Below are positions 2,031-48,081 of a stretch of DNA of 48,081 nt, one piece after another. Source of the stretch: Escherichia phage AN_ECEAS. Where the stretch lies: the sequence record PP944860.1; one strand, written 5' to 3'. Position numbers and translations under genes: made by a program. The notes below the pieces were generated by a model. The model saw nothing but the letters and a program-made list of their open reading frames with translations, searched no databases and had not been told where the DNA came from. How positions within the stretch are numbered: position 1 is the first letter of the stretch; every line of letters begins with the position of its first letter.

Positions 2031-3491
2031 ATGGAGTTAGTTGAAATCGCTTCAAATAGCTGCGAAGGACTTGAGGCAAAAGCGAAGGCTTTAATGCCAT
2101 CATTTCAGCCTTATGACAGTATTATTCTGGTAGGTGACTTGCCAGTCAGGTGTTTAATGGCGTCTGGAACAGACCTAAGCATTACTGATATCAAGTTCCT
2201 AACTTTCGGTAGCCGAGCAAGGCTAATCACTGAAATTAACAAGATGATTGCTGATGGTTGGGAGATTTTCGGCGAGCCAAAGGCTGACGCAAACAGATTT
2301 GGCACAATTATGACCAAAGGCTTTCAGGGCGCTAAGGGTACGGCTGGTGTCGCTGGCCCGCAAGGTCCGCAGGGCGTTCAGGGTTTGCAGGGTCCAGAAG
2401 GCCCGCAAGGTCCAAAAGGTAATGATGGCGATGATGGTTCTCAAGGTGAGCGAGGACCACAAGGTCCGCAGGGTATCCGTGGCGAGCAAGGCGTTCAAGG
2501 TCCGCAGGGCATCCAGGGGCCAATCGGCTTAACTGGTGATACAGGTCAGCAGGGGCCAGCTGGTCCAACTGGTGCTACTGGTCCTCGTGGACCTCAAGGT
2601 GTGCAAGGTGAGGCTGGTCCTGCTGGCGCTACAGGTCTGGAATTTAAAGGCGCATGGGCTCCAGGTATCGAATACAAAGCAAACGACGCAGTGGCTTATA
2701 ACGGTTCAACATGGTTTGCTGTGACTGGAAATACAGACGAGACACCAGGGACGGGAACATCATGGCAGGTAATGGCATCACAAGGTTCTCGCGGACCAGC
2801 CGGACCAGAAGGCCCGCAAGGTGATGTTGGCCCGCAAGGTGAGCAAGGAATTCAAGGACCAATCGGAGCAACTGGACCATCTGGACCTCAGGGCGCAAAA
2901 GGTGATACAGGAGACACTGGACCAGCAGGACCAGAAGGACCACAAGGTTTAACTGGACCAGCCGGACCGCAAGGCATTCAAGGACCAGCTGGTGTTCGAG
3001 GTGCTACTGGTGCAACTGGTGTAAACGGAGCTAATGGCGCCACAGGACCGCAAGGGCCAGCTGGACCAAATGGTGATTCAGGTCTTAATTACACATATCA
3101 GAAATGGTCAAACGTAGCAAATGGCGTTGGGTATGTAACAATCCCCGGGATGCCTAATACACAAATAGGAGTTAACAGGAATTCTGCCGGAGCAATTGTG
3201 TACACTCTCTATAGTACTGGTGGAACCGTTAGGTATCTTGATTGGCGCGCTGAGATACCATCATATGATACAAATGCAATAACCACGGCTGCTGGCACGG
3301 CGACAACACCAAGCTCTGCTGGTGTAATAGCAACGATGAATACCGTTTTATATAATGGGTTAAGATCAGTCAAATTTATAATTAAGGATTGGGGCGCATC
3401 AAGGATTGCTGTAATTGAATGTTACCAACACGGAAGGGCTAACTCAGACGCGAGGCCTGTTACTATCGAGATGCGCTCATTCTCTTACTAA
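2031..3491 (+). CDS. collagen-like (Gly-X-Y) fibre protein with a CBM5/12-like insert between two triple-helix tracts
   Basis: Two long uninterrupted G-X-Y tracts (approx 2319-2636 and 2784-3083); ATG 2031 has RBS AGGAG whereas ATG 1998 has none; extended -10 upstream. Confidence 0.7.
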
Positions 3492-3581: not shown

Positions 3582-4526
3582 ATGGCTATTAAGTTTGACG
3601 CTGAACAAGCGAAAATCACTGCTCACCTAGAGCAGATGGGCGTAGATAAAGCTGACGCCGCTGGCATCTGGACCGTCAAGCAACTGACACAGACCCTGAA
3701 GCGCAACTACGAGCGTGAATATACCGACAACTCTGTTGTTAATATCTTCCCGATCAGTAACGAAATCCCTGCTTCTGCTAAATACTTCGAGTACCCAGAA
3801 TTCGATGGCGTTTCAATCGCTCAGATTATCGCAGACTACTCCGATGACCTGCCGCTTGTTGACGCGTTCATGACTGAGAAACAAGGTAAAGTGTTCCGCT
3901 TCGGTAACGCATTCCTGATCTCCATCGATGAAATCGCAGCTGGTGCAGCAACTGGTCAATCTCTGTCTGCTCGTAAACAGGCTCTGGCTTTTGAAGCTCA
4001 CGACAACCTGCTTGACAAACTGGTATGGTTTGGCTCTGCTCCGCACGGTATTAACAGCGTATTTAATACCCCCAACGCAAGCCGCGTAACCCCGAACGCA
4101 TGGGTTGATGCCGCTGCTGCTGTTAACGATATCACTCGAATGATTGATGCTATCGAAACTAACACGCAGGGTATGCATACTGCTACTGATATCATTCTGC
4201 CAGCCTCCGCTCGCCGCTTGATGCAGCAACTGGTTCCTGGTACTACGATTAGCTATGCTCAGCTGTTCGCAACTAACAATACCAGCGTAAATATTCGCTA
4301 TTTGCAGTTCCTGGACGATATTGATGGCGCTGGCACTAAAGCAGCTCTGGCGTTTGAAAAAGACCCGCTGAACATGAGTATTGAAATTCCTGAGGCAACC
4401 CACGTATTGCCGGGTCAGCCGAAAGATTTGCATTTCAAATACCCTGTTACTTCCAAGTCTACAGGTCTGGTTGTTTACCGACCTCTGACTCTTGCTATCA
4501 TGTCTGGCATCGAAATTACCGCATAA
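3582..4526 (+). CDS. putative major capsid protein
   Basis: 314 aa; strong sigma70-like promoter upstream, RBS AAGGAAG, strong terminator directly downstream; position in head module. Confidence 0.5.
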   Translation: MAIKFDAEQAKITAHLEQMGVDKADAAGIWTVKQLTQTLKRNYEREYTDNSVVNIFPISNEIPASAKYFEYPEFDGVSIAQIIADYSDDLPLVDAFMTEKQGKVFRFGNAFLISIDEIAAGAATGQSLSARKQALAFEAHDNLLDKLVWFGSAPHGINSVFNTPNASRVTPNAWVDAAAAVNDITRMIDAIETNTQGMHTATDIILPASARRLMQQLVPGTTISYAQLFATNNTSVNIRYLQFLDDIDGAGTKAALAFEKDPLNMSIEIPEATHVLPGQPKDLHFKYPVTSKSTGLVVYRPLTLAIMSGIEITA

Positions 4527-4531
4527 TCACC

Positions 4532-4553
4532 GCCCTCTCCGGAGGGCTTTTTT
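4532..4553 (+). terminator. rho-independent terminator after capsid gene
   Basis: GCCCTC-TCCG-GAGGGC stem-loop plus T6. Confidence 0.75.
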
Positions 4554-4616
4554 ACGTCTGTACGAAGGCGTGTTTGTGCGATATAATTCACTCCTAAGAT
4601 AACAAAGGAGATTAAA

Positions 4617-4862
4617 ATGGTACGTTTAGAACACATTGGCGCATGCTCAGTTAACTACAAGGATAAATATTACCTTCCTGGTGATATCATTGAGGCTGAT
4701 GAAATCTGTACTGGCCTTAAAGCACTCATCGCTCAGGGTATTCTTGAGATTGAAGGTGACGGTAAGACTTCAAAGCAGATCGCGTTAGAGGTTAAGGCGA
4801 AATCTAGGCGCAAAGAACCGAAGACCATTGACGAAGCTCAGACTGGTCAGGAATATAAATAA
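4617..4862 (+). CDS. hypothetical protein (single-gene unit between two terminators)
   Basis: ORF with RBS AAAGGAG, flanked by terminators at 4532-4553 and 4869-4890. Confidence 0.5.
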   Translation: MVRLEHIGACSVNYKDKYYLPGDIIEADEICTGLKALIAQGILEIEGDGKTSKQIALEVKAKSRRKEPKTIDEAQTGQEYK

Positions 4863-4868
4863 CCAAAT

Positions 4869-4890
4869 GGGCGCTTCGGCGTCCGTTTTT
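4869..4890 (+). terminator. rho-independent terminator
   Basis: GGGCGC-TTCG-GCGTCC stem-loop plus T5. Confidence 0.6.
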
Positions 4891-4903
4891 GTATGGAGGT
4901 TTT

Positions 4904-5299
4904 ATGAACGAACAAGCATTGGCCTTTATGAGGTCACTAGTTCCAGCTTTGCGTAACGTGCAAGATGAAACGCTGGATGTATGGCTTGAACTTGCTAAAC
5001 TTTACATCTGCACCAGTAAATTTGGTGATGATGCTTACAAGGCGCTTGCACTGTACACTATGCACATCGCCTTTCTTGATGGTGCGCTTAAGCAGAATGA
5101 GTCTTTGGATGATTATGGCAAGAAGGTGACTAGTTACTCCCTGAGTGGTGAATTTTCCATTAGCTATGAATCAACATCTCAATCGCAGTCAGCACTAACA
5201 GCAACTCCGTGGGGCCGACTGTACTGGAATCTTCTACGTAAGAAAGGTGGTGGATTTGGCTTAATTACGTCCACTTGGCGTGGGTGTGGTTGCCTATGA
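4904..5299 (+). CDS. putative head-tail adaptor protein
   Basis: ORF with RBS GGAGG before ATG 4904; position between capsid and tail genes. Confidence 0.3.
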   Translation: MNEQALAFMRSLVPALRNVQDETLDVWLELAKLYICTSKFGDDAYKALALYTMHIAFLDGALKQNESLDDYGKKVTSYSLSGEFSISYESTSQSQSALTATPWGRLYWNLLRKKGGGFGLITSTWRGCGCL

Positions 5300-19155: not shown

Positions 19156-20127
19156 ATGACATTCAAAGTTTATTTAAATAACGAACTTAGCAACGAAGCC
19201 TATCACGAAGAGCAGGACCACATCTCTGGCTCTTCACTGGCTGAGATTCTTGCTACCTCACCAGCTAAATGGAAGTTTAAGCAGCGCAATAACTCTAGCG
19301 CAGCACTTAAGTTTGGCACACTAAGTCACTGCATGATGCTAGAGCGCGAGGTGTTTGACTCAACATACATGCGAGCTACTGACTTTGACGAAGTGGAAGG
19401 ATTGATTACTAGCCAAACGGCTTTATCCGCAGCGCTTAAAAAAGTTGGAGTTTCAGGCACGTCAGGGAAGGGTTATAACGAGCTTGTAGAGATGATGTAT
19501 AAGTGTGGTGAGGATTGGCCTGTTAAATGGTTAATTGAGCAGCAGGAGAGCGCTCATGCGCTAATTAGTGGCAAAGAGCTAGTTGCTGCGAAAGATTACG
19601 ATAAAGTAATTCAAATGCGAGAGGTTCTAACTAATATTCCGGCATATGATTCGGTAATTAATTCACCATCAGCGCAGAAAGAACTATCAATATTTGGTGA
19701 GATTCTCGGTTGTGGTGTTAAGGTTCGTCTTGACCATGTGGATGTTGTTGATGGTATTGTCTACATTACTGACTATAAAACTACGTCAGACGCAAGCCCG
19801 AGGGGGTTTGGGAAGTCAGCTTATGACCATGGATACCTGTGCAAGATGGCACTTCAGCGAGATCTGTTTGTGAAAGCCTTTAATGAGAAACGTAAGGTTG
19901 TAGTTCGCCTTCTGGCGCAGGAGAAAACAGAGCCTTACTTACCAATGAGCTACACTCTTACGGATGAACAGCTTAGAATTGGACGTTTACAATATTGTGA
20001 GGCACTGTCAATTTACAAGAATTGCAAGGAAACAAACATGTGGCCCGGATACTCAAACGGAGCAACGGAACAGGAGTTAATGATACCTGAATGGGTAATT
20101 AACAGTTATAAGGATATTATAAAGTGA
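19156..20127 (+). CDS. putative PD-(D/E)XK-family exonuclease (recombination partner of ERF)
   Basis: Motif ITDYKT consistent with D-x-K nuclease core; position upstream of ERF/SSB. Confidence 0.45.
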   Translation: MTFKVYLNNELSNEAYHEEQDHISGSSLAEILATSPAKWKFKQRNNSSAALKFGTLSHCMMLEREVFDSTYMRATDFDEVEGLITSQTALSAALKKVGVSGTSGKGYNELVEMMYKCGEDWPVKWLIEQQESAHALISGKELVAAKDYDKVIQMREVLTNIPAYDSVINSPSAQKELSIFGEILGCGVKVRLDHVDVVDGIVYITDYKTTSDASPRGFGKSAYDHGYLCKMALQRDLFVKAFNEKRKVVVRLLAQEKTEPYLPMSYTLTDEQLRIGRLQYCEALSIYKNCKETNMWPGYSNGATEQELMIPEWVINSYKDIIK

Positions 20128-20608
20128 TTGATAAATTTAATGATATCTTTAGATATGATGGTGAAAAGCTGTACTATAAAAACTGGGTAAACGGTAGAAG
20201 TAAGTCTCTTGGACTAGAGGCTGGTAGCAAACAGAATGGTTACTTGAAAGTTACAATTGGCGGCAGAAATTATAAAGTTCATAGAATTATATGGGAAATG
20301 GTTAATGGTGAAATACCTGATGGAATGGAATAGATCACATAAATCACGTAAAGGATGATAATAGGATTGAGAATCTAAGGCTGGTAACTCACAAGGAAAA
20401 CTCAAGAAATAGGAAAAAGAGGTCAGATAACTCTTCAGCAACACAGGGCGTTTCTCTGCATAAGATTACAAGGAAGTGGCAATCTTATTGCTCTGATAAT
20501 GATGGAAAAATTATGTACCTTGGATTATTTGAGGATATTAATGATGCTATTGATGCTAGGGTTAAGTTCGCCTCACAATGTGACTTCCATGAGAATCATG
20601 GTAAATAG
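20124..20608 (+). pseudogene. HNH homing endonuclease, frameshifted (N-terminal part in frame 0 to 20333, HNH core in -1 frame 20321-20608)
   Basis: Frame 0 ends ...IPDGME*; -1 frame continues IDHINHVKDDNRIENLRLV..., matching the intact paralogue at 36850..37347. Confidence 0.5.
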
Positions 20609-25441: not shown

Positions 25442-25915
25442 TTACTCTTTAGCTTTTCGTGCTGCTTCGTTAGCGGCCTTAATCTTGCGCCATGATCGAC
25501 ACTCTGGCTTGGTGGCTAGCTCTGCTTCAGTAACTACGCGAAGCATATGACGCTTCTTACATCGAAGTGTTAGCGGCTTACCGTTTCCGTCGAATTGCAG
25601 GTCTGGTCGGCAGAACGTAGCTCGAAATCCTTCCTTATTTCTCTTATACGCATTGTGAGCTTTCTGCGCTCCTCGAGCCGAAATCATCCCGCGATCAAAC
25701 CATTGCTCTACAGTCTGGTGAGATACGTTTAACTGCTTTGCGATGTTCGCCTTTGTTCCATAGAAATCAAGAACCATCTCCAGGCGAGCACGTAGCCCAG
25801 CCTTTACCTCATCTTTCAATACGTAGTAGCCTGACGGTCGTTTGCGTTGCTTCTTGTCTTGTGTGCGTACCGTTCCGTTATTGCCGTTAATAGTTCGTTT
25901 GTCAATTTCACACAT
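25442..25915 (-). CDS. HTH DNA-binding protein (candidate transcription regulator)
   Basis: Basic protein with HTH-like segment IAKQLNVSHQTVEQWF; its RBS region abuts dyad motif 25928-25946. Confidence 0.4.
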   Translation of the reverse strand: MCEIDKRTINGNNGTVRTQDKKQRKRPSGYYVLKDEVKAGLRARLEMVLDFYGTKANIAKQLNVSHQTVEQWFDRGMISARGAQKAHNAYKRNKEGFRATFCRPDLQFDGNGKPLTLRCKKRHMLRVVTEAELATKPECRSWRKIKAANEAARKAKE

Positions 25916-25927
25916 CTCATTACCTCA

Positions 25928-25946
25928 ATAGCACTTTTTGTTAAAC
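25928..25946 (+). promoter_or_regulatory. dyad-motif promoter element ATAGCACTTTTTGTTAAAC
   Basis: Upstream of helicase gene; TATTAT-like hexamer ~20 bp downstream; 12 bp from start of divergent HTH gene. Confidence 0.55.
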
Positions 25947-26011: not shown

Positions 26012-29000
26012 ATGCTTCCAGTAGAGCGCTTAGTGGCAAACTTTGATCAAGAGAAAATCAAACAGATTCAGAAAGATTACCAGTTTGGAGACATAACTCC
26101 TTACGAATTCCAGTGTGTAACATTTGACGCAATTGGTAAGGCTATTGGTAAGTACGAGGCTCCATTCATCGCAGACCTGTCTGTATCTGCTGGTAAAACA
26201 ATAATTCTTGCCATGATTGGGAAAAGAATGGAGCAACTTGGACTTCCTTATATGGTACTGTCTCGCCAGTCAGAGATTATCAGCCAGAACGCAGAGGAAC
26301 TCCGTAACTTCGGTATCCGTAATAGCGTCTATTGCGCTGGACTTAACGTTAAATCAGTTTACTACCCAACCATAGTGGCTAGTGAGGGTACAGCTGCCAA
26401 TGGCCTGTTTAAGGGGCTTGGTGACTATGTTCCTGCTGTTATCGCGATAGATGAGTGCTTAACTGGAGACACGATGATAACCACCGATTCAGGGATGATG
26501 AGGATTGATAGCGAAGACCTTATCAATCATAAAATAAAATGCATAAACGAAAGCACTGGTGATTACTTCTATCATAAGCCAAAAAGAGTTTTTACTAATG
26601 GTGTAAGACATGTATCATCAATTAAATTAGAAAGCGGAGAGGAAATAAAATGCACGAGTACACACAAACTTTATTCGAACGGCTGCTGGGTAGGAGCGGG
26701 AAAACTTCGTATTGGGATGAATCTGTCGCTAGACGGCTCGCAGGACAAATTTACGAAAAAGCTCCTGCGTGCAAGTGTGGCTGTGGTGAAAAAGTTATGC
26801 CGCATTCAAGCAAGGGGTTAGGCGTACTTCTTAAGAACCCTTTCGATTTCTATTTGGATTACAGAACGGGGCATCATAATTCAACCGTCAACCCATCAAT
26901 GGAGGTTGATGACTTTTTACATCAAAACATTCTTGCGGCAATGGCTGGTGATGGTTGCTTGATTAAAAATACAGAAAAAGGAACGCATAGGCTATCTTGG
27001 AATATGGGAAATAAGGAGCACGCACTAAGCAAGGTTGAAAGGTTTGCAAAACTAAACCCTAGATACAGGGAGAAGAAAAACCCTGGATTTGGCGACAACT
27101 GGTTTTGCGTATCAACATCATGTACGAAAGTTCTGGATTCATATGCTGATAAGTACGGAAATTCTAAGGATGGTTACGATATTGGAAAGATATGCAGAGA
27201 GCTTGATCCAGTTGGTTGGGCTGCTTACTTTGGTGATGATGGTCATTGCACTGTAAGCTCAGGGAAGAGGGTTGTAGAAATCCACACCGAATCATTTAGC
27301 AGGCGTGAAGTTCAATCAGTAGTTGATGCGCTAATAGCATTTATTGCTAATGACGGAGTTAATGTTAGAAGCTATATTGGCGGCAAGAAAAAGAGAGAGC
27401 TTTACTCAGTATCAATAACAACGAGGTCGGCACAAGATGAGTTTTTTAAGAGAATTAGTAAGCACATGGAAAATGGCGTGGAATACAAAATCAAGCAAAA
27501 TTAAAGACATCTCACCCATTGGCAAGGAACTTGTTTGGGATATAGAGATGCCTGAGCACCATAATTTCATTGCTGACGGGGTCGTGGCACATAATTGCCA
27601 CATGGTGGACCATATGGATATCGTAGAAGCTGAAGAGAATGAGGAAACATTCGAGCAGATGAGCACGAAGAAGGGTGAGATGGTCTTTAAGGATGGTGTG
27701 AATACCGGGCTTCTTGGCACTGGTCGCGCGCAATACACGTTAATCATTACCGAAATGAAGCGTCGATGCAAGGAGAAGTACGGTCGCGAACTTCGTATCT
27801 TTGGGTTAACTGGTAGCCCGTACCGTAACAACGACCACATTGTAGTTAGTAACCCAAATGTCCGTGGATTCTGGCGCAAAACTGTAATGCAAGTGCCAAC
27901 CAGCTACCTTGTTGACTTGGGGTTCGTTGTTCCTACTGTCTACGGTGAAGTTGGTGATTTGGGCTACGACCTTAGTGAGTTCACTCCTGATGGAAGTGAT
28001 GGGGTTAAGGACTTCAGCAAGAAAGAAATGGATGCGATGGCTGCAAAGATTCACGAAAACCAAACGATGACACAAAAGATAATGGGATTTGCTGCTAGGT
28101 TTATGGAAACAAGGAATGCTGCATTGGTAACTTGCGCTGGCAAACAGCATTGCGAGGAGGCGGCAGCCGCACTTCCAGAAGGTGTTACTTGGGCGATAGT
28201 TACCAACTCCACTGGTGATAAGAAGCGTAGAGAGATACTTGAGAAGGCAGCCAGCGGAGAATATAAGTTCATATTTCAGATTGGTTGCCTCACAACTGGC
28301 GTAAACTGCCCCCCGTGGGATACAAGCATTATCCTGAGGAAGGTTGGTAGCATTACTCTACTCATTCAGTTGCTTGGTCGTGGTATGCGTATCCTTAAGA
28401 AGAAGCACAAAGAAGCTGGAATGGTAAAAGATGACCATGTTGTTCTTGATTTTGCCGGGACGCTTGACGATATGGCAGAACTCTACTTCGACCCAATTAT
28501 AGAAGAGGTTCAGGACCAGAAGTTTAAGTCATCCAGGAAAGGGGGTGATGAACCAAGAATTTGCCCAGCATGTTCTTATGAGAATTCTCCTTTCGCACGG
28601 CGCTGTAATAATGTGATTGACGGTAAACGATGCGAGCATTTTTTTCAGTTCCGTCTTTGCGAAGATATTGAGGACCCGCAGACGAAAGTTATCGTTAAGA
28701 AAGGTTGCGGAGAGAAAAATGACGTTGCAGCAAAGAACTGCCGCTGCTGCGGAGAGATGCTGATAGACCCAAATGCAAAGCTATCTGGAAAAATGTATCG
28801 GAAAGGGGACTGGTTGAGAGTTTATGACTTCAAGATTGGGTTGACAAAAAACCAGTCAGGGATCGTTGCTTCATATGAGGTAATGGCTCATAGTGGAGAT
28901 AAGTTCCGAGCTTATGAAACATTCTTCCCGGAGTCAGACCATCGTGTTTGTTCTGTCAAATGGAAGGCGTTTTGCTCAACTCACATCGAGAACAGGACTG

Positions 29001-29146
29001 AGGCTTTTAGGATTGGCAGATTGCGTAATGCTAAAATGATTATGACAAATGCACATCTTTTCCGTGCGCCGCTAAGGATTACGCACCGCAAGAATCAGAA
29101 GTCGCAAGATATTATCGCCAACAAATCATTTACGATGGAGGATTGA
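26012..29146 (+). CDS. SF2 DNA helicase interrupted by an intein in motif II (exteins 26012-26455 and 27596-29146)
   Basis: Walker A SVSAGKT; DE|CH box restored on splicing; motif VI QLLGRGMR; C-terminal zinc ribbons; reading frame is not continuous through the intein. Confidence 0.7.
26456..27595 (+). mobile_element. intein with LAGLIDADG homing-endonuclease domain (endonuclease domain in a different frame)
   Basis: N-terminal CLTGDT and block B TSTH; C-terminal ...HNFIADGVVAHN followed by Cys; two LAGLIDADG-like motifs ILAAMAGDGCL and WAAYFGDDGHC in ORF 26650..27504. Confidence 0.75.
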
Positions 29147-36834: not shown

Positions 36835-36853
36835 CATTATCAATTTGTGCTAT
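36835..36853 (-). promoter_or_regulatory. dyad-motif promoter element, variant ATAGCACAAATTGATAATG (minus strand)
   Basis: TATAAT follows 22 nt after the TTGATA arm; upstream of 35196..36779. Confidence 0.5.
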
Positions 36854-37347
36854 TTGCCATGATTTGGGTGATAACCCAGCCTCACCTCTGCAACAATTCT
36901 TGCCTCACATGCAGAGATAAAGTCATCAAAAAAACCAAGGTGAACAGTCTTTCCACCACTCTGTATTGAGGCCCTCCACTTACCTGTTCTTTTGTATATG
37001 GCGACTCCAGTTACACCACTTTTATTATCAAACCTTAATGATGAGTTCATTGAATTCACTTTTTGGGTAACAAGCCTTAGATTTTCAATCCTATTGTCAC
37101 GCCTATTTCCATTTATGTGGTCTATGAATAGACAATCAGGTATGTCTCCATTAGTCATCTCCCATATAATTCTGTGAGCCATTGTGTAGCCGATTCCCTT
37201 ATTGCTAACCCTAACGTACCCGCTTGTTGTAACCTCCGTGTTAACTGGCTTATTTGCATATTTTGTATTCCAAGATTGAGTTCTATCTGACCTCTCCTTT
37301 CTGTACAAAACTGAATCTTTTATATAAAAAATTTCATTCCAGTTCAT
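36850..37347 (-). CDS. HNH homing endonuclease
   Basis: Motif IDHINGNRRDNRIENLRLV plus C-terminal AP2-like region; ATG 37347 overlaps upstream stop. Confidence 0.65.
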   Translation of the reverse strand: MNWNEIFYIKDSVLYRKERSDRTQSWNTKYANKPVNTEVTTSGYVRVSNKGIGYTMAHRIIWEMTNGDIPDCLFIDHINGNRRDNRIENLRLVTQKVNSMNSSLRFDNKSGVTGVAIYKRTGKWRASIQSGGKTVHLGFFDDFISACEARIVAEVRLGYHPNHGK

Positions 37348-41313: not shown

Positions 41314-41736
41314 ATGAAATTAAGCAAATCTCAAAGGGAAGAGTTGAAGGGCAAGTTCGGTGGTCGCTGCGCTTATTGTGGGTGTGAACTACCTGAGAAA
41401 GGCTGGCATGCTGACCATGTTGAACCGGTGCTACGTAAATCTGAGGTATGCATGAAGGCAGCGGAGAAAGGAACTTTCAAGCTGAAGGCGACAGGTGAGT
41501 TTAATCGACCACAAGCTGATCGAATGGAAAACCTTTACCCTGCATGTGCTCCATGCAACCTCATGAAAACTTGCTATTCCCTTGAAATGTTCAGGGAACA
41601 GGTGTCTCTTCAAGTCGCTCGCGGGCGTAAGAGCAGCATGAATTTTCGCACGGCAGAGCGGTTCGGCCTCATCTCCATAGTGGAGGATCCAGTTGTTTTC
41701 TGGTTTGAGAAGTTTGAGCAAATTAACAAAATCTGA
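41314..41736 (+). CDS. HNH nuclease (zinc-binding, McrA-like)
   Basis: CAYCG...HADHVEP...NLYPACAPCN motif set. Confidence 0.6.
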   Translation: MKLSKSQREELKGKFGGRCAYCGCELPEKGWHADHVEPVLRKSEVCMKAAEKGTFKLKATGEFNRPQADRMENLYPACAPCNLMKTCYSLEMFREQVSLQVARGRKSSMNFRTAERFGLISIVEDPVVFWFEKFEQINKI

Positions 41737-43315: not shown

Positions 43316-43391
43316 GTTCTGCTGGCGTAACAGGATAACGCAAAGACCTCCTAAGTCTTAGTTACTGGTTCGAGTCCAGTGCGGAACACCA
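43316..43391 (+). tRNA. tRNA-Arg (anticodon CCU), CCA encoded
   Basis: Hand-folded cloverleaf: 7-bp acceptor stem, U8, D-arm GCGT/ACGC, anticodon stem AAGAC/GTCTT with loop CTCCTAA, T-arm ACTGG-TTCGAGT-CCAGT, discriminator A. Confidence 0.8.
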
Positions 43392-43422: not shown

Positions 43423-43635
43423 ATGAAAAAAGTAACAATCATCGTAAAAGATATTGAAAGCGGCACTTCCCAAAAATTCAACGCAACACTTGACCGTGAA
43501 CATAAATGCTTAAAGGGTGTGATTGGCGGGGTTTCAGTTAGCGCGGATATTAAAGGTTATCTCGAGCTTGAAAGAGAAATTCAAAACTATAGCAATCAGA
43601 GCGGGAAGATAAAAAATGCAGCTCTGGGATGTTAA
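43423..43635 (+). CDS. hypothetical protein
   Basis: RBS GGGGGA. Confidence 0.4.
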   Translation: MKKVTIIVKDIESGTSQKFNATLDREHKCLKGVIGGVSVSADIKGYLELEREIQNYSNQSGKIKNAALGC

Positions 43636-43804
43636 GCTTTCAATCCGATTAATGGGTCGTAGTTGCAAAAGTTGCACTCAAGAATTTATCGCGTCGGTTA
43701 CTGCTAAGTCCTCAGAGGAAGCAGTAGCGAAAGTTAAGGTAATGTCTGGTGCCGACCCGGATTACCACAAATTCCTAGTAGCTTACGTTCGTGAGCGAAA
43801 GTAA
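43616..43804 (+). CDS. hypothetical protein
   Basis: Overlapping ORF; terminator downstream. Confidence 0.35.
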   Translation: MQLWDVKLSIRLMGRSCKSCTQEFIASVTAKSSEEAVAKVKVMSGADPDYHKFLVAYVRERK

Positions 43805-43857
43805 AAGAAGTTCTACTCTCTGTTTGTTTCATATCTCTCGTTGTTGTTCGATACTTC

Positions 43858-43881
43858 GCCCTCTTCTTGAGGGCTTTTTTT
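43858..43881 (+). terminator. rho-independent terminator before packaging module
   Basis: GCCCTC-TTCTT-GAGGGC stem-loop plus T7. Confidence 0.7.
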
Positions 43882-43892
43882 CGTTTGCTATA

Positions 43893-43901
43893 TGATATAA
43901 T
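43893..43901 (+). promoter_or_regulatory. extended -10 promoter candidate TGATATAAT upstream of the TerS gene
   Basis: Exact TGnTATAAT just downstream of terminator 43858-43881. Confidence 0.4.
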
Positions 43902-43928
43902 GCATCTCTAAACAAAGGAGGTAACAAA

Positions 43929-44453
43929 ATGAAAGACGAAAACTTCACCAGTCAGGCGCAGGAAAAGGTCAGCTCTGGCAACTTTAAAGCCATGTACAAT
44001 AAAAAGTACTCAGACATTACAACGCTAGCCAAAAACCGAAGCATGACACCCGAACAGCTATTTGAATTCGCCGTGAAATACTTCTCATGGGCTGAGGACC
44101 AGGCAATCAAGGCAATCGAGACAGCCAGCTTCCAGGGTGTGGTAAAAGAGAGCCTGGTGCACAAACCACGAGTCTTCACGCTAACCGGATTCTGCCTTTA
44201 CTGCGGCGTCACCCATAGCGCCATCGAGAAATGGAGGAAGTCGGCTGGTTACGATGAGGTGATGGCATTCATTGATTCCGTGATTCGCGAGCAAAAGTAC
44301 CAGTTAGCAGCGTCCGGCATCATTAACCCTGGCATGATTTCTAAAGAGCTCGGTATCGACAAGCCGCAGGAGATTAACATCACCAGCACATCTTCAGCCA
44401 ACGACGTCGATACGATGAAAGAGGCGCTCGAATCGGTTATTAGCAAGTTGTAG
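43929..44453 (+). CDS. putative terminase small subunit
   Basis: 174 aa, RBS AAGGAGG, immediately upstream of HNH and TerL. Confidence 0.5.
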   Translation: MKDENFTSQAQEKVSSGNFKAMYNKKYSDITTLAKNRSMTPEQLFEFAVKYFSWAEDQAIKAIETASFQGVVKESLVHKPRVFTLTGFCLYCGVTHSAIEKWRKSAGYDEVMAFIDSVIREQKYQLAASGIINPGMISKELGIDKPQEINITSTSSANDVDTMKEALESVISKL

Positions 44454-44468
44454 CACTTTTTGTTAAAA
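44450..44468 (+). promoter_or_regulatory. dyad-motif promoter element GTAGCACTTTTTGTTAAAA
   Basis: GATAAT hexamer downstream; upstream of HNH gene 44521. Confidence 0.5.
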
Positions 44469-44520
44469 ATAGCGAACCAATCAGTGGGATAATGGGTCAC
44501 TAAATAAACAAGGAGAATAT

Positions 44521-44997
44521 ATGGATTGGGGTGATTTCTTCTATCTTAGTGATGATTCCGTTTCTGGTATAAAGTGGAAGGTTAATAAGGGTCGGTCAAT
44601 GGCTGGTGACGACGCTTTAACATCTGTTGGTAATGGATATTACAAAGGCAGACTCAACCAGAAGACAACGTACGCCCACAGGGTCGTTTACTTTCTTAAC
44701 TATGGCGTAATCCCTGATGTTATAGATCATATGGATGGTAATGGGCTTAACAACTCAATAGAAAACCTAAGGGATGGCACCACAGCCAAGAATATGCAAA
44801 ACAAGCTATGTAAGGGTTACAGCTACAATAAGAGGGATGACGTTTATTATGCTCAGGTAACTACAAATGGGGTGACTAAACATGTAGGTTCTTTTGCAAG
44901 CAAGGAATTGGCTATTGCTGCTTACCTAAAGGAGAAGGAATTGCAGCATGATTTCTATAACAAAGAGAGGAAGATATGCTTGTTTGGGAAAGTATGA
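44521..44997 (+). CDS. HNH homing endonuclease (terminase-associated position)
   Basis: Motif VIDHMDGNGLNNSIENLR plus AP2-like C-terminus; RBS AAGGAGAA; overlaps TerL start. Confidence 0.65.
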   Translation: MDWGDFFYLSDDSVSGIKWKVNKGRSMAGDDALTSVGNGYYKGRLNQKTTYAHRVVYFLNYGVIPDVIDHMDGNGLNNSIENLRDGTTAKNMQNKLCKGYSYNKRDDVYYAQVTTNGVTKHVGSFASKELAIAAYLKEKELQHDFYNKERKICLFGKV

Positions 44998-46538
44998 GCC
45001 AGCAGGAAAAGCTGGCTGTAAAACTTATATCAGAGAATAGTTTTGAGGGATTTTTAAGGTGCTGGTTTTCCATTACTCAGGGTGAGAGATACATCCCTAA
45101 CTGGCACCACAAGTATCTTTGCAGAATCATCGATGAGATTATCGCAGGTGAGCGTAAGGACACAATCATCAACATAGCACCCGGGAGTGGGAAGACAGAG
45201 ATAGCATCAATTCACTTCCCAGCCTACTCCATGGTTAAGTTGAAGAAGGTAAGGAACCTTAACATCTCGTTTGCCGACTCACTTGTTAAGCGTAACTCTA
45301 AGCGAGTGCGTGACCTGATTAAGTCGGTTGAGTTCCAGGAGTTGTGGCCCTGCAAGTTTGGCACATGTAAGGATGATGAGCTACAGATTCTGGATGAGTC
45401 TGGTAAGGTTCGGTTTGAGTCAATATCTAAGGCTGCTGGAGGCCAAATAACCGGCGCAAGGGGTGGATATATAACGGATTCATATAGCGGAGCGGTTCTG
45501 TTAGATGATTTTGACAAACCAGCCGACATGCTTTCTGCTGTTTTTCGCGCTAACAATCACGTGATGCTAAAGAATACAATACGCTCTCGTAGGGCGAGCT
45601 CCGTAAAAGGAAAGGCGACGCCGATTATCTCTATCCAACAGCGCCTTCATGTGAATGATAGTACGTGGTTCATGATGAATGGCGGTATGGGTATTAGCTT
45701 CGACTTGATTAAGATACCGGCGCTCGTAACTGAGGATTACGTCGAAACGCTTCCTGACTGGATTAAGCAGCAATTCATTGATGACGTTCTATCAAGCGAA
45801 TATATTGAGCGTGATGGTGTTAGGTACTATAGCTATTTCCCTGGCAAGGAATCTGTTCACGACCTAGTTGCAATGTGGGATTCTGATAGCTATACATTCC
45901 TTAGCCAGTATCAGCAAGAACCAGTAGCACTTGGCGGCAACCTGATTAACGTAGACTGGCTTCAACGCATTAGCGACACTCTGCGACCGCCAGCTAAGTA
46001 CGATTACAGGTTTATGGTCCTTGATACTGCGATGACAACCAAAAGTTACAGCGACTTTAGTGTCATGCAGCTATGGGGTTATAAGGATGGGAAGATTTAT
46101 CTGCTTGACCAGCGGCGCGGTAAATTTGAAGCTCCTGAGCTCGAGGCTGAGTTATTGAATTTCGAGAAGATGGCTAGGGCATCCAATCAGATAGATGGCA
46201 TCCTTCGTAAAATCATCATCGAGAAGAAAGCCTCTGGTATTGGCCTGATTCAATCAGCCGGAAGGGTTATGCGAACGCCTATCGAGCCGTACGTTCCTGA
46301 TAACGATAAGCTGACTCGCGTAATGAGTGCATTGCCGCAGATTAAAGCTGGTAACGTAATCCTTCCGGAGTCTGCTACTTGGCTTAATGGCTTGCTAACG
46401 GAGATTGCGGCATTCACGGCAGATGATTCACATGTTCACGATGACCAGATAGACTGTTTGACAATGGCTGTCAACCTGGTACTGAACATTGCAGAAGACC
46501 CTAAATCGAGGATGATGCGCCTCGCTGGCATCAAATAG
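44976..46538 (+). CDS. terminase large subunit
   Basis: Walker A IAPGSGKT, Walker B VLLDD, C-terminal nuclease acidic motifs; RBS AGAGAGGAAG. Confidence 0.8.
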   Translation: MLVWESMSQQEKLAVKLISENSFEGFLRCWFSITQGERYIPNWHHKYLCRIIDEIIAGERKDTIINIAPGSGKTEIASIHFPAYSMVKLKKVRNLNISFADSLVKRNSKRVRDLIKSVEFQELWPCKFGTCKDDELQILDESGKVRFESISKAAGGQITGARGGYITDSYSGAVLLDDFDKPADMLSAVFRANNHVMLKNTIRSRRASSVKGKATPIISIQQRLHVNDSTWFMMNGGMGISFDLIKIPALVTEDYVETLPDWIKQQFIDDVLSSEYIERDGVRYYSYFPGKESVHDLVAMWDSDSYTFLSQYQQEPVALGGNLINVDWLQRISDTLRPPAKYDYRFMVLDTAMTTKSYSDFSVMQLWGYKDGKIYLLDQRRGKFEAPELEAELLNFEKMARASNQIDGILRKIIIEKKASGIGLIQSAGRVMRTPIEPYVPDNDKLTRVMSALPQIKAGNVILPESATWLNGLLTEIAAFTADDSHVHDDQIDCLTMAVNLVLNIAEDPKSRMMRLAGIK

Positions 46539-46553
46539 CACGTTTTGCTAAAG
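46535..46553 (+). promoter_or_regulatory. dyad-motif promoter element ATAGCACGTTTTGCTAAAG
   Basis: Overlaps TerL stop; TATAGT 46574-46579; upstream of moron 46608. Confidence 0.55.
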
Positions 46554-46607
46554 ACGCGCCGCCAAGGATGGCTTATAGTTACTTCACGCAAACGAGAGGA
46601 GTAAAAA

Positions 46608-46961
46608 ATGAAAGCAGTATTTAAAGGGTATAAAAAAGCTGGTTATTTTGATTTTACCGTTGGTAAGATTTATGACTTATCAAGAACGCCTGGAAGTAAT
46701 AATGAATACGTCAAAGTTAAGGATGATAAAGGCTATTTGGGCGTAATTAATCTTAGTGTTTATGATTTCGAAGTTATAGAGCCTACCGATTTTGTCGTTA
46801 AAGGTGATAATTTTAAAGTTGAAAAGGCTGGGATTAAATACTTCATCAACAAAGACATAGTAACTAAAGAGGCATTTTATGAAGTCAGAAGGGAGGTTCG
46901 CCAGTTAACACTTAATGGAGTGAAAACATCATCAATCAAGTTCGAAGTAAAATTCGAGTAA
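46608..46961 (+). CDS. hypothetical protein (AT-rich moron between TerL and portal)
   Basis: Own dyad-motif promoter 46535-46553 and own terminator; RBS GAGAGGAG. Confidence 0.5.
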   Translation: MKAVFKGYKKAGYFDFTVGKIYDLSRTPGSNNEYVKVKDDKGYLGVINLSVYDFEVIEPTDFVVKGDNFKVEKAGIKYFINKDIVTKEAFYEVRREVRQLTLNGVKTSSIKFEVKFE

Positions 46962-47019: not shown

Positions 47020-48081
47020 ATGGTAAAAGCAGATTCATACGCCACGCAATTTCTTGGTGGCTCCAGTGATGGTAGCGAGATTTACGGGCACTTTGGCAAC
47101 ACGTATCTTACACCTCCTTTCGCTGATTCACTGTACGCATCAAACTCAATTGTACGCCGCATCGTCGACACCATACCGGAGACAGCAATCGCCGCAGGTT
47201 TCCATATCGATGGTATTGATAACGAAGGTGAATTCTGGTCCAGGTGGGATTACCTGAAGGTTAACGAGTCAATCTCTGACGCATGGTCATGGGCGAGGTT
47301 ATTTGGCGGCTCTGCAATTGTGGCTATCGTTAAGGACAATCGTGCGCTAACTAGCCCGGTACGTGAAGGCGCGGAACTTGAATCACTTCGCGTTTATGAG
47401 CGTAGCCAGGTAAGAGTTCAGACTAAGGAGGAAAACCCTCGCAATGTGCGATTCGGTAAGCCATTAACGTATCGCATCACGCCAGAAGGTGGCGCCATGT
47501 TTTATGATGTGCACTACTCGCGAGTTCACATTATTGATGGCGAGAAGATTCCTAGTTCATTGCGTCGCGGTAATGACGGGTGGGGTGCTAGCGTTCTGGT
47601 TCCTGACCTGCTTGAATCAATCAAGGATTATCAGACGTGTGAGAAACTGGCAACTCAGTTATTGCGCCGCAAGCAGCAGGCGGTGTGGAAGGCTAAAGGC
47701 CTTGCTGAACTGTGTGACGACGCGGAAGGTTTTGGTGCGGCGAGGTTGAGGCTTGCCCAGGTTGATGATAACTCTGGCGTTGGTCGCGCGATTGGTATCG
47801 ACGCTGAAGCTGAAGAGTACAGCGTTCTTAACTCGGATATTGGTGGGATTGATGGATTCCTCGATAAGAAGTTCGACAGAATTGTTGCTCTGAGCGGTAT
47901 CCATGAAATCATTCTCAAAGGTCGTAACGTTGGCGGGTTGTCATCAAGCCAGAATACAGCGCTAGAGACTTTCCACAAGCTAATCGACCGCAAGCGCAAT
48001 GAGGAGTTACTTCCAGTGCTTGGTTTCTTAATCCCATTCATCACAACCGAGCAGGAATGGTCAGTTGAGTTTAACCCTCTA
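47020..48081 (+). CDS. putative portal protein, N-terminal part (ORF open at window end, continues at 1..285)
   Basis: ATG 47020 with RBS GGAG; no stop before window end; position after terminase. Confidence 0.5.
   Translation, partial: MVKADSYATQFLGGSSDGSEIYGHFGNTYLTPPFADSLYASNSIVRRIVDTIPETAIAAGFHIDGIDNEGEFWSRWDYLKVNESISDAWSWARLFGGSAIVAIVKDNRALTSPVREGAELESLRVYERSQVRVQTKEENPRNVRFGKPLTYRITPEGGAMFYDVHYSRVHIIDGEKIPSSLRRGNDGWGASVLVPDLLESIKDYQTCEKLATQLLRRKQQAVWKAKGLAELCDDAEGFGAARLRLAQVDDNSGVGRAIGIDAEAEEYSVLNSDIGGIDGFLDKKFDRIVALSGIHEIILKGRNVGGLSSSQNTALETFHKLIDRKRNEELLPVLGFLIPFITTEQEWSVEFNPL
48007..48081. repeat. terminal direct repeat (identical to 1-75)
   Basis: Exact 75-bp identity of the two window ends. 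Confidence 0.95.

Follow-up and report, generated by a model that had tools for sequence, protein, structure and literature searches.

A probable free-standing HNH–AP2 homing endonuclease cassette between the terminase genes of a T1-like Escherichia phage

Introduction

The free-standing homing endonucleases of the Seg and Mob groups in T4-like phages are encoded in intergenic positions between essential genes, as MobE is between nrdA and nrdB. Their genes are sporadic in distribution, have their own expression signals and show co-conversion of flanking markers, and homing has been demonstrated for some of them; the translation of some T4 endonuclease genes is gated by RNA structure. I-HmuI is an intron-encoded HNH homing endonuclease that ends in a helix–turn–helix module and nicks one DNA strand. 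Homing endonucleases of the HNH–AP2 type were reportedly proposed by Magnani and colleagues, in 2004, to be the ancestors of plant AP2/ERF factors.

The HNH proteins of the HK97 gp74 type have a [CxxC]2 zinc site, and their genes lie beside cos in the order HNH–TerS–TerL–portal in cos-site phages and prophages (PMC3592412). In the Drexlerviridae, HNH genes have been described as mobile and sporadic (PMC13164509; PMC8594841), and the genomes of T1-like relatives have been reported to be circularly permuted (PMC4070988).

Here we describe an HNH gene between the genes for the small (TerS) and large (TerL) terminase subunits in a 48,081-nt stretch of DNA from Escherichia phage AN_ECEAS (sequence record PP944860.1); this whole stretch is referred to as the window. 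Over 43800-46600, the window and Escherichia phage ES (OR466728.1; Drexlerviridae, Braunvirinae) have 100% identity. ES is a T1-like E. coli phage, and the locus is called ES below. The ES protein resembles I-HmuI (Bacillus phage SPO1, 1U3E) in being a zinc-less HNH_3 protein in which the D-H...N-L-R...N motif can be aligned, but it is free-standing in an intergenic slot and carries a C-terminal AP2-fold domain. It shares the nuclease–AP2 fusion with the HNH–AP2 mobile genes of phages and bacteria, although its AP2 domain does not reach the Pfam threshold and is seen only by profile and fold. Compared with the Seg and Mob genes of T4-like phages, the ES gene belongs to another phage family and has another DNA-binding module, and its homing would be understood by analogy with them. 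Both the ES protein and HK97 gp74 belong to the HNH superfamily and are encoded near terminase genes; however, the ES protein has neither the gp74-type zinc site nor the gp74-type gene order, and it is not conserved among relatives with the same terminase.

The same slot and the same HNH_3–AP2 architecture are found in Rtp (rtp20), JeanPiccard (bas02_0002), BEK2/BEK26, Rao1 (gp12) and AHP24_02. In the Braunvirinae, the HNH genes at this junction have a promoter-leader in common with ES; only those of JeanPiccard and EC147/BEK26 belong to the ES lineage (lineage A; Table 1), the others being 25-31% identical to it. GenBank labels the relatives at this junction as (putative) homing endonucleases (Rtp rtp20, JeanPiccard and the BEK phages), and its label for the ES gene is already HNH protein. 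In the literature, we found no report of an experimental characterization of the Drexlerviridae HNH genes at this junction.

Layout of the terminase junction

Because the first 75 nt of the window are repeated at 48007-48081 as an assembly overlap, the window is a circular-assembly copy of a 48,006-bp genome. The gene order in ES is TerS–HNH–TerL (Table 1). As the preliminary description had stated, an HNH/AP2-type gene, recognized by its HNH_3 match and by an AP2 profile and fold, lies between the two subunit genes and overlaps the TerL start. The TerL start was placed at the ATG at 44976 because the TerL proteins of relatives begin M(S/SN/AN)L(V/I)WEE. The TerL ribosome-binding site, GAGAGG (44965-44970), is inside the HNH reading frame, and the TerL N terminus reads M-L/I-V/I-W-E in lineage-A genomes versus MS(N)LVWE in genomes with an empty site. 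Upstream of TerS there are a terminator, a promoter-like site and small open reading frames, and no HNH gene. The HNH gene is outside any intron or intein: it is intergenic, with TerS and TerL both intact, and an Rfam scan of 43500-45500 returned no family at E<=1, whether group I intron or other RNA.

Table 1. Features of the ES terminase junction, other HNH genes of the window and lineages of HNH_3–AP2 genes at the junction
Feature	Position	Strand	Details
TerS gene	43929-44453	+	174 aa; Pfam GP3_package 6.1e-12; phrog_606 3.2e-57
Dyad motif TAGCACTTTTTGTTAA	44451-44466	+	Member of the genome-wide TAGCA-N5-TG[CT]TA family
Inserted cassette	44454-44975	+	522 nt: promoter-like unit, leader and most of the HNH reading frame
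-10-like hexamer GATAAT	44488-44493	+	22 nt after the dyad
Shine-Dalgarno AAGGAG	44510-44515	+	Strong; 5 nt 5' of the HNH ATG; read off the sequence
HNH gene	44521-44997	+	ATG, 158 aa; real open reading frame
HNH_3 catalytic core	44671-44799	+	Residues 51-93; Pfam PF13392, E=3.9e-11
AP2-like domain	44812-44943	+	About residues 98-141; family profile and fold
HNH 3' end / TerL start overlap	44976-44997	+	22 nt
TerL gene	44976-46538	+	520 aa; phrog_38 1.4e-105; Terminase_6C; TIGR01630
TerL 5' tract of discordant ancestry	44976-45125	+	Nucleotide identity comparison
Second HNH_3–AP2 gene	20124-20608	+	Split by a frameshift (1-nt deletion)
Third HNH_3–AP2 gene	36850-37347	-	Intact; HNH_3 8.7e-21
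Fourth HNH gene, different family (PF01844, CxxC type)	41314-41736	+	Pfam HNH 8.8e-5; phrog_2118 7.4e-55
Lineage A			ES; JeanPiccard, 75% identity to ES; EC147/BEK26, 55-58% identity to ES
Lineage B			Rao1, TR1-3, CY1
Lineage C			Rtp rtp20
Lineage D			BEK2, BEK3, 2725-N35, FP
Lineage E			AHP24, BECP10, Klebsiella phage cp24

Domains and conservation of the HNH protein

A domain search, a check suggested in the preliminary description, returned HNH_3 (PF13392) for the ES protein, whereas AP2 was found through a family profile and not through Pfam. The HNH_3 match is above the Pfam cut-off at 42.9 bits, PF01844 is not matched, and the protein also matches PHROG 99 ('HNH endonuclease') at 3.4e-43. 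All 14 family members compared have D69-H70, N82 and N91/N94 unchanged, and these residues can be aligned with those of I-HmuI. CxxC zinc ligands are absent from the protein, which has just two isolated Cys residues. No NCBIfam match was obtained for either the HNH protein or TerS.

The profile built from the 14 family members matches I-HmuI (1U3E) over positions 1-99, which comprise the N terminus and the HNH region, with E=1.7e-10. Over positions 100-148 it matches plant AP2/ERF domains, those of WRI1 and TEM1 among them, with E=6e-5 for 7WQ5; Pfam AP2 matched neither the whole ES protein nor its C-terminal 64 aa alone. An AF2 model computed from a six-sequence alignment is mediocre as a whole (pLDDT 66, pTM 0.39), and only its AP2 half was used because the HNH half is unreliable. 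In that half, strands at 100-103, 108-115 and 118-125 and a helix at 128-141 are predicted with pLDDT of 80-90, and the best PDB matches returned by Foldseek are AP2 domains (7ET4 and 1GCC), with weak E values of 0.1-0.3. The AP2 label thus holds at the level of the profile and the predicted fold only.

Comparison of the HNH gene with its 75%-identical orthologue in JeanPiccard gives a dN/dS of 0.10, which indicates purifying selection. This value bears on the possibility that the gene is an inactive remnant, a decaying nuclease gene without remaining activity. The HNH_3 score of the ES protein is lower than the 74-83 bits of its paralogues, the residues after the catalytic His are N-N-S instead of the usual D-N-R, and other copies are visibly decayed, namely the frameshifted gene at 20124 and the BEK2 gene with its DH-to-DR change. 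The ES reading frame, however, is full-length, has a strong ribosome-binding site and retains all family-invariant residues under the selection just described. Moreover, N-N-S is common to the lineage-A relatives and is therefore a trait of that lineage, not decay. We consider a remnant extremely improbable.

Other HNH genes in the genome

The preliminary description counted four HNH-type genes, and all four are present, although one is frameshifted and another is of a different family (Table 1). The second HNH_3–AP2 gene reads GAATAG where GAAATAG would preserve the frame, and its two halves match the family profile at 1.3e-21 and 2e-36. The third, whose likely start is MNWNEIFY at 37347, has a weak AP2 match (0.023, below the Pfam cut-off). 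Homologues of the fourth, at 41314, are scattered in unrelated phages, such as P22-like and T4-like genomes. This gene was considered as a gp74-like terminase partner and rejected, given that its homologues are scattered and that the gene itself is not conserved in the family. The repeated invasion by homing endonucleases that the preliminary description had proposed is supported by the scattered distribution of HNH genes.

The dyad motif upstream of the HNH gene

The motif before the HNH gene belongs to a family of sites that is strongly over-represented in the window. The 19-mer at 44450-44468 is present four times when <=2 mismatches are allowed (0.04 expected), and the 16-mer TAGCACTTTTTGTTAA has four exact copies and nine matches at <=3 mismatches (0.9 expected). 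The dyad at its core, TAGCA-N5-TG[CT]TA, is found at 16 sites, giving 27 strand hits versus 0.2 expected from shuffles. A hexamer with at least five of six matches to TATAAT follows 21-23 nt downstream at 14 of these 16 sites, and an open reading frame starts 55-68 nt after the motif at 13. The HNH unit is typical in these respects, with the dyad at 44451-44465, GATAAT at 44488-44493 and the ATG 55 nt beyond the dyad.

A canonical sigma-70 scan of 44450-44520 found no promoter. The 22 nt between dyad and hexamer are too long, and the TTG(C/T)TA half therefore cannot act as a -35 element. With GATAAT taken as the -10 element, the centre of the dyad falls near -42, a position at which activators that overlap the -35 region would bind, and the unit may be regarded as a putative non-canonical promoter for the HNH gene. 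In every Braunvirinae relative checked, the motif is also present after the TerL stop and is therefore a general signal of that phage group; in ES, the next dyad motif (46536-46551) opens with the TAG stop of TerL. 'Phage-specific promoters' are referred to in a supplementary figure of the publication on IMM-001. The preliminary description had credited the HNH gene with its own dyad-motif promoter: the motif is real and is missing from the junctions of HNH-less relatives, whereas its promoter activity is what we infer.

The dyad is joined to the end of TerS. In ES the TerS stop, TAG (44451-44453), forms the first three bases of the motif. A TAG stop followed by CACTT or CAATT was found in all seven HNH-bearing Braunvirinae relatives examined, whereas HNH-less relatives have TAA or TGA and their TerS/TerL junctions lack the dyad unit. 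There is no terminator between the dyad unit and TerL, which are about 0.5 kb apart. An RNA structure in the leader that would gate translation of the HNH gene was considered but is not supported: the leaders of ES, Rao1 and Rtp fold no better than shuffles (z of 0.04 to -0.86); that of JeanPiccard alone reaches z = -2.4.

Empty and occupied junctions among relatives

The ES cassette stands in place of a TerS–TerL spacer that is 16-19 nt long in relatives. In IMM-001, the closest relative, with TerS and TerL proteins 95% identical, the junction has 16 nt and reads TAA-GAATGGAGAGAGTAGA-ATG. IME253, T145P1 and EC3a have a spacer of 17-19 nt, TAA-CAATAAGAGGGTATAAC(AC)-ATG, of which the junctions of SU57 and DTL are close variants, and in Rogue1 TerS and TerL overlap and there is no insert. 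The possibility that the IMM-001 spacer is a scar of cassette loss was considered; it resembles the 3' end of the ES cassette over the ribosome-binding site only. A junction was scored as occupied according to the length of sequence that tblastn matches spanned with TerS+TerL as the query. By this measure, an insert of about 0.5 kb is present at the junction in 16 of the 60 most similar phage records and in 3 of 41 records in an evenly spread, family-wide sample. A few phages (PCEc3, AugustePiccard) have instead an insert of about 100 nt with a hydrophobic open reading frame of 31-33 aa.

This distribution bears on the role that the preliminary description had suggested for the gene, that of assisting terminase cleavage. 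In such a role, the HNH protein would bind TerL and stimulate or complete packaging cuts, like HK97 gp74 or the HNH proteins of staphylococcal cos phages. The gene does adjoin TerS and TerL, is co-transcribed with both and is interlocked, at the level of translation, with the start of TerL; purifying selection on it is strong (dN/dS 0.10), and lineage A has been kept at the junction across two subfamilies. The protein, however, is HNH_3/I-HmuI-like and lacks the [CxxC]2 zinc site by which the terminase-associated HNH proteins are defined (PMC3592412), and its gene lies between the subunit genes, an order that differs from HNH–TerS–TerL–portal beside cos. Neither the circular permutation reported for genomes of this phage group (PMC4070988) nor the 75-nt assembly overlap points to cos ends. 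The gene is missing from IMM-001 and from most of the family, and the slot also holds HNH proteins that are 26-31% identical to that of ES, one of them with a mutated catalytic His. The preliminary description had itself named relatives without an HNH gene at this locus as evidence against a helper, and viable close relatives are empty there (IMM-001, IME253, T145P1, EC3a, SU57, DTL and Rogue1).

EC3a, which was examined in full, keeps one HNH gene at another site, between primase and a regulator, and on this ground alone an HNH protein acting in trans would still be conceivable. Such a helper would need to be a protein of another lineage encoded at another site. On the evidence as a whole, we regard a function as terminase accessory factor as very unlikely.

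HNH lineages in the slot and their common leader

At least five lineages of HNH_3–AP2 genes (A-E; Table 1) occur at the TerS/TerL junction. Lineages B, C and D are 42-47% identical to one another, and lineage A, which is found at the junction across two subfamilies, is 25-31% identical to the other lineages. All relatives of the ES protein with at least 55% identity are encoded at exactly this junction (JeanPiccard, EC147, BEK26 and the metagenomic contigs L022-L024), whereas a relative with 42% identity is located elsewhere, between the head genes of a phage with a P22-type portal.

In the Braunvirinae, lineages A-D have one common promoter-leader, and their HNH proteins are only 26-45% identical. 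The leader comprises the TAG stop of TerS, the dyad, a GGCCCA...TGGGCC repeat around the -10-like hexamer, a ribosome-binding site (GAGGTG) and the first ~10 codons of the gene (MNWHD.F.Y). Compared with the leader of Rao1, that of ES is 76% identical, and those of JeanPiccard and of lineages C and D are 88-95% identical; the similarity collapses about 30 nt into the reading frame. When 50,697 phage records were searched with blastn, the leader was found in only 14, in every case at the TerS/HNH junction, and at no empty junction.

The common leader and the contrast in synonymous divergence described below indicate that replacement affected the reading frames and spared the leader and the TerL flank. 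Paralogues elsewhere in the ES genome have the same conserved 5' codons, which makes it plausible that reading frames would be swapped by crossing-over within them. The junction may possibly be a fixed cassette slot, with the leader and ~10 codons as its left arm and the TerL start as its right arm, between which HNH–AP2 reading frames have been swapped repeatedly; we put this forward tentatively and with more doubt than conviction. Because TerL obtains its ribosome-binding site, its start codon and perhaps a promoter from the cassette, the slot may to some extent stabilize itself, and it may alter terminase expression.

Mobility and turnover at the junction

In pairs of related occupied genomes, divergence is much lower in the HNH gene than in the genes beside it, a mark of homing. 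Between EC147 and BEK26, dS is 0.07 for the HNH gene, 0.45 for TerL and ~2 for TerS, and a sharply bounded tract of 96-99% identity extends from ~30 nt before the HNH gene to ~100 nt into TerL. In lineage-D pairs, dS of the HNH gene is 0.18-0.21 versus 0.36-0.65 for the flanks. The opposite pattern is seen between Rtp (lineage C) and BEK2 (lineage D): their TerL genes are close (dS 0.55), but their HNH genes are saturated, with 43% amino acid identity, and the site was therefore occupied independently. SU57, which has an empty site, belongs to the same TerL clade (TerL dS of 0.37 to BEK2), such that empty, C-occupied and D-occupied alleles are interleaved in one clade. In BEK2 the catalytic DH of the HNH protein has changed to DR, and the loss of this His (to Arg) indicates decay. 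The VWDELT sequence at the TerL 5' end of lineages B-D was considered as an immunity change and rejected; it is a clade marker that is also present in the empty-site genomes SU57 and DTL.

For ES itself, the sole evidence of horizontal movement is the 5' tract of TerL. Over TerL nt 60-150, ES is 84-86% identical to JeanPiccard and AugustePiccard and 71% identical to IMM-001, whereas beyond nt 300 the values are 86-91% for IMM-001 and 70-78% for JeanPiccard. At the level of nucleotide identity, this tract resembles a co-conversion tract. Synonymous sites between ES and JeanPiccard are saturated, and therefore no recent transfer is visible in ES. Between ES and EC147, amino acid identity is 55% for the HNH protein and 49-51% for the terminase proteins; such similar divergence within lineage A would also fit long vertical residence and selection for another function.

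A different fate for the cassette would be co-option as a resident element that no longer homes and is kept for the promoter, ribosome-binding site and start codon that it gives to TerL. TerL expression would then be uncoupled from TerS, and loss of the cassette would require precise repair. The placement of the TerL ribosome-binding site and ATG inside the HNH reading frame, the remodelled TerL N terminus (MLVWE versus MSNLVWE), the dyad unit ~0.5 kb 5' of TerL with no terminator between them and the lack of a recent-transfer signal in ES all agree with co-option. A DNA element co-opted in this way would need no protein, yet the reading frame is intact, its catalytic residues are kept and its dN/dS is 0.10. 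Furthermore, relatives with an empty site express TerL without the cassette, and a single TerL clade contains gains, losses and replacements interspersed with one another. Co-option is, in our assessment, improbable.

Discussion

At this locus we see the domain identity of the protein, a presence/absence polymorphism, the occupation of one site by several lineages, purifying selection, and signatures of mosaicism or low divergence. We conclude that the ES gene product is very probably a free-standing homing endonuclease, with an I-HmuI-like HNH part and an AP2 domain, and that its gene is carried on a cassette of ~0.52 kb that replaces the TerS–TerL spacer. By analogy, the protein would have nuclease activity and a target site, and the cassette would have promoter activity.

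The mechanism that we propose is drawn by analogy with characterized free-standing phage homing endonucleases. When a cell is infected at the same time by a relative whose junction is empty, the enzyme would nick or cut the relative's genome at or near the sequence made up of the TerS stop, the spacer and the TerL start. Repair by recombination would then copy the cassette into that genome, along with some of the adjoining TerL sequence. In ES the insertion stands in place of the spacer, which is proposed to protect its own genome. For expression of the HNH gene, the cassette would bring a strong ribosome-binding site and a promoter unit with the dyad motif of the phage, and its 3' end would now provide the ribosome-binding site and start codon of TerL.

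As a homing endonuclease, the ES cassette is an ordinary case of an already known type in a known hot spot; insertions of this type are frequent in the phage family and are gained and lost within it. The annotation is settled in favour of a mobile homing-endonuclease cassette and not a packaging component. In phage engineering, the cassette is probably deletable or usable as an insertion site. The 5' end of TerL is a source of disturbance in phylogenies of the Drexlerviridae built on this gene. For studies of homing-endonuclease turnover, the junction is a compact natural system in which empty, occupied, replaced and decayed states are found in one family and have one expression signal in common. 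The interest beyond the known type lies in the one conserved promoter-leader across four HNH lineages, which implies the replacement of reading frames in a fixed slot.

Probable homing endonuclease genes at and near the terminase junction

The coordinates of the features discussed here, in ES (Escherichia phage AN_ECEAS) and its relatives, are collected in the table. At the junction between the terminase small-subunit (TerS) and large-subunit (TerL) genes, the relative BEK2 has an HNH gene in which the catalytic His is replaced by Arg (IDR versus IDH) and NDNR by NVNR. The FP and 2725-N35 phages, in which the sequence is 96–98% identical to that of BEK2, both retain IDH and NDNR. The BEK2 gene looks like a freshly inactivated copy. 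In some relatives, the junction holds no HNH gene and has instead an insert of about 100 nt, which encodes a hydrophobic peptide of 31–33 aa. Relatives have a second hot spot for homing endonucleases at the junction directly 3′ of TerL; at this site, ES has nothing but a dyad unit and the gene for a small virion protein.

A tRNA-Arg gene lies on the other side of the junction, 5′ of TerS, and relatives have a tRNA-Arg annotated at the matching position. Between this gene and TerS comes a terminator-like hairpin, GCCCTCTTCTTGAGGGC with a T-run after it; next is a promoter-like site containing TGATATAAT. Therefore, a single transcript that starts here and spans TerS, the HNH gene and TerL is also possible.

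The HNH_3-AP2 gene (zinc-less HNH nuclease plus AP2-fold domain) that lies between the exonuclease VIII-like and recombinase genes of ES is split by a one-base deletion, which is either a real pseudogene mutation or a sequencing error. The same slot in phage TR1 contains an intact HNH gene encoding 163 aa. For this stretch of ES, the GenBank entry reads ‘capsid maturation protease’ and ‘head morphogenesis protein’, a label that does not fit the sequence.

Table. Coordinates of features in ES and its relatives
Feature	Sequence	Coordinates	Remark
Junction HNH gene	BEK2 (L010)	576-1088	
Junction insert, ~100 nt	PCEc3 (L004)	2900-3001	
Junction insert, ~100 nt	AugustePiccard (L015)	526-621	
Second hot spot, downstream of TerL	BEK26 (L007)	4523-5005	
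Second hot spot, downstream of TerL	AugustePiccard (L015)	2321-2716	
Small virion-protein gene	ES	46608-46961	
tRNA-Arg	ES	43316-43391	anticodon CCT; ~540 nt 5′ of TerS
Terminator-like hairpin and promoter-like site	ES	43858-43896	
HNH_3-AP2 gene	ES	20124-20608	deletion around 20328-20333
Helicase region	ES	26012-29146	
Regulator gene, 157 aa	ES	25442-25915	minus strand; phrog_2856, 8e-84; weak P22_Cro match
Dyad adjoining regulator	ES	25929-25944	
Dyad sites, first eight of 16	ES	7205, 18477, 20606, 24397, 25929, 27335, 29565, 29819	
Dyad sites, last eight of 16	ES	32300, 33387, 37796, 38413, 40164, 40840, 44451, 46536	
TAG stop/dyad start, TerS	ES	44451-44453	
TAG stop/dyad start, TerL	ES	46536-46538	
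TAG stop/dyad start, frameshifted HNH gene	ES	20606-20608	

Helicase region and window ends

The helicase region of ES is split into three overlapping ORFs (269, 284 and 569 aa); the helicase of phage EC3a is one 664-aa protein. The first ORF gives weak Intein_splicing/HINT hits (E=3e-4). This arrangement suggests that the gene may be interrupted by an intein or another insertion, perhaps together with frameshifts. At the ends of the window, positions 1-75 are repeated exactly at 48007-48081. The repeat is an overlap from the assembly of a genome that is circular or permuted; counted once, it leaves a unique length of 48,006 bp.

A putative promoter class built on a dyad

The TAGCA-N5-TG[CT]TA dyad gives 27 strand hits across the window, compared with 0.2 expected, and is also found after the TerL stop in every Braunvirinae relative checked. 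The majority of copies form a stereotyped unit, in which the dyad is followed after 22 nt by a −10-like hexamer, often with CATCGAA behind it, and then by an ORF start about 55–68 nt 3′ of the dyad. These units look more like a putative promoter class of the activator-type or phage-specific kind than like standard sigma-70 promoters. A candidate for the dyad-binding protein is a helix-turn-helix ‘transcriptional regulator’, the gene for which immediately adjoins a dyad within a divergent intergenic region. At three genes (TerS, TerL and the frameshifted HNH gene), the first three dyad bases are the TAG stop codon. Because these stops double as dyad bases, the gene ends are fused with the next expression unit.
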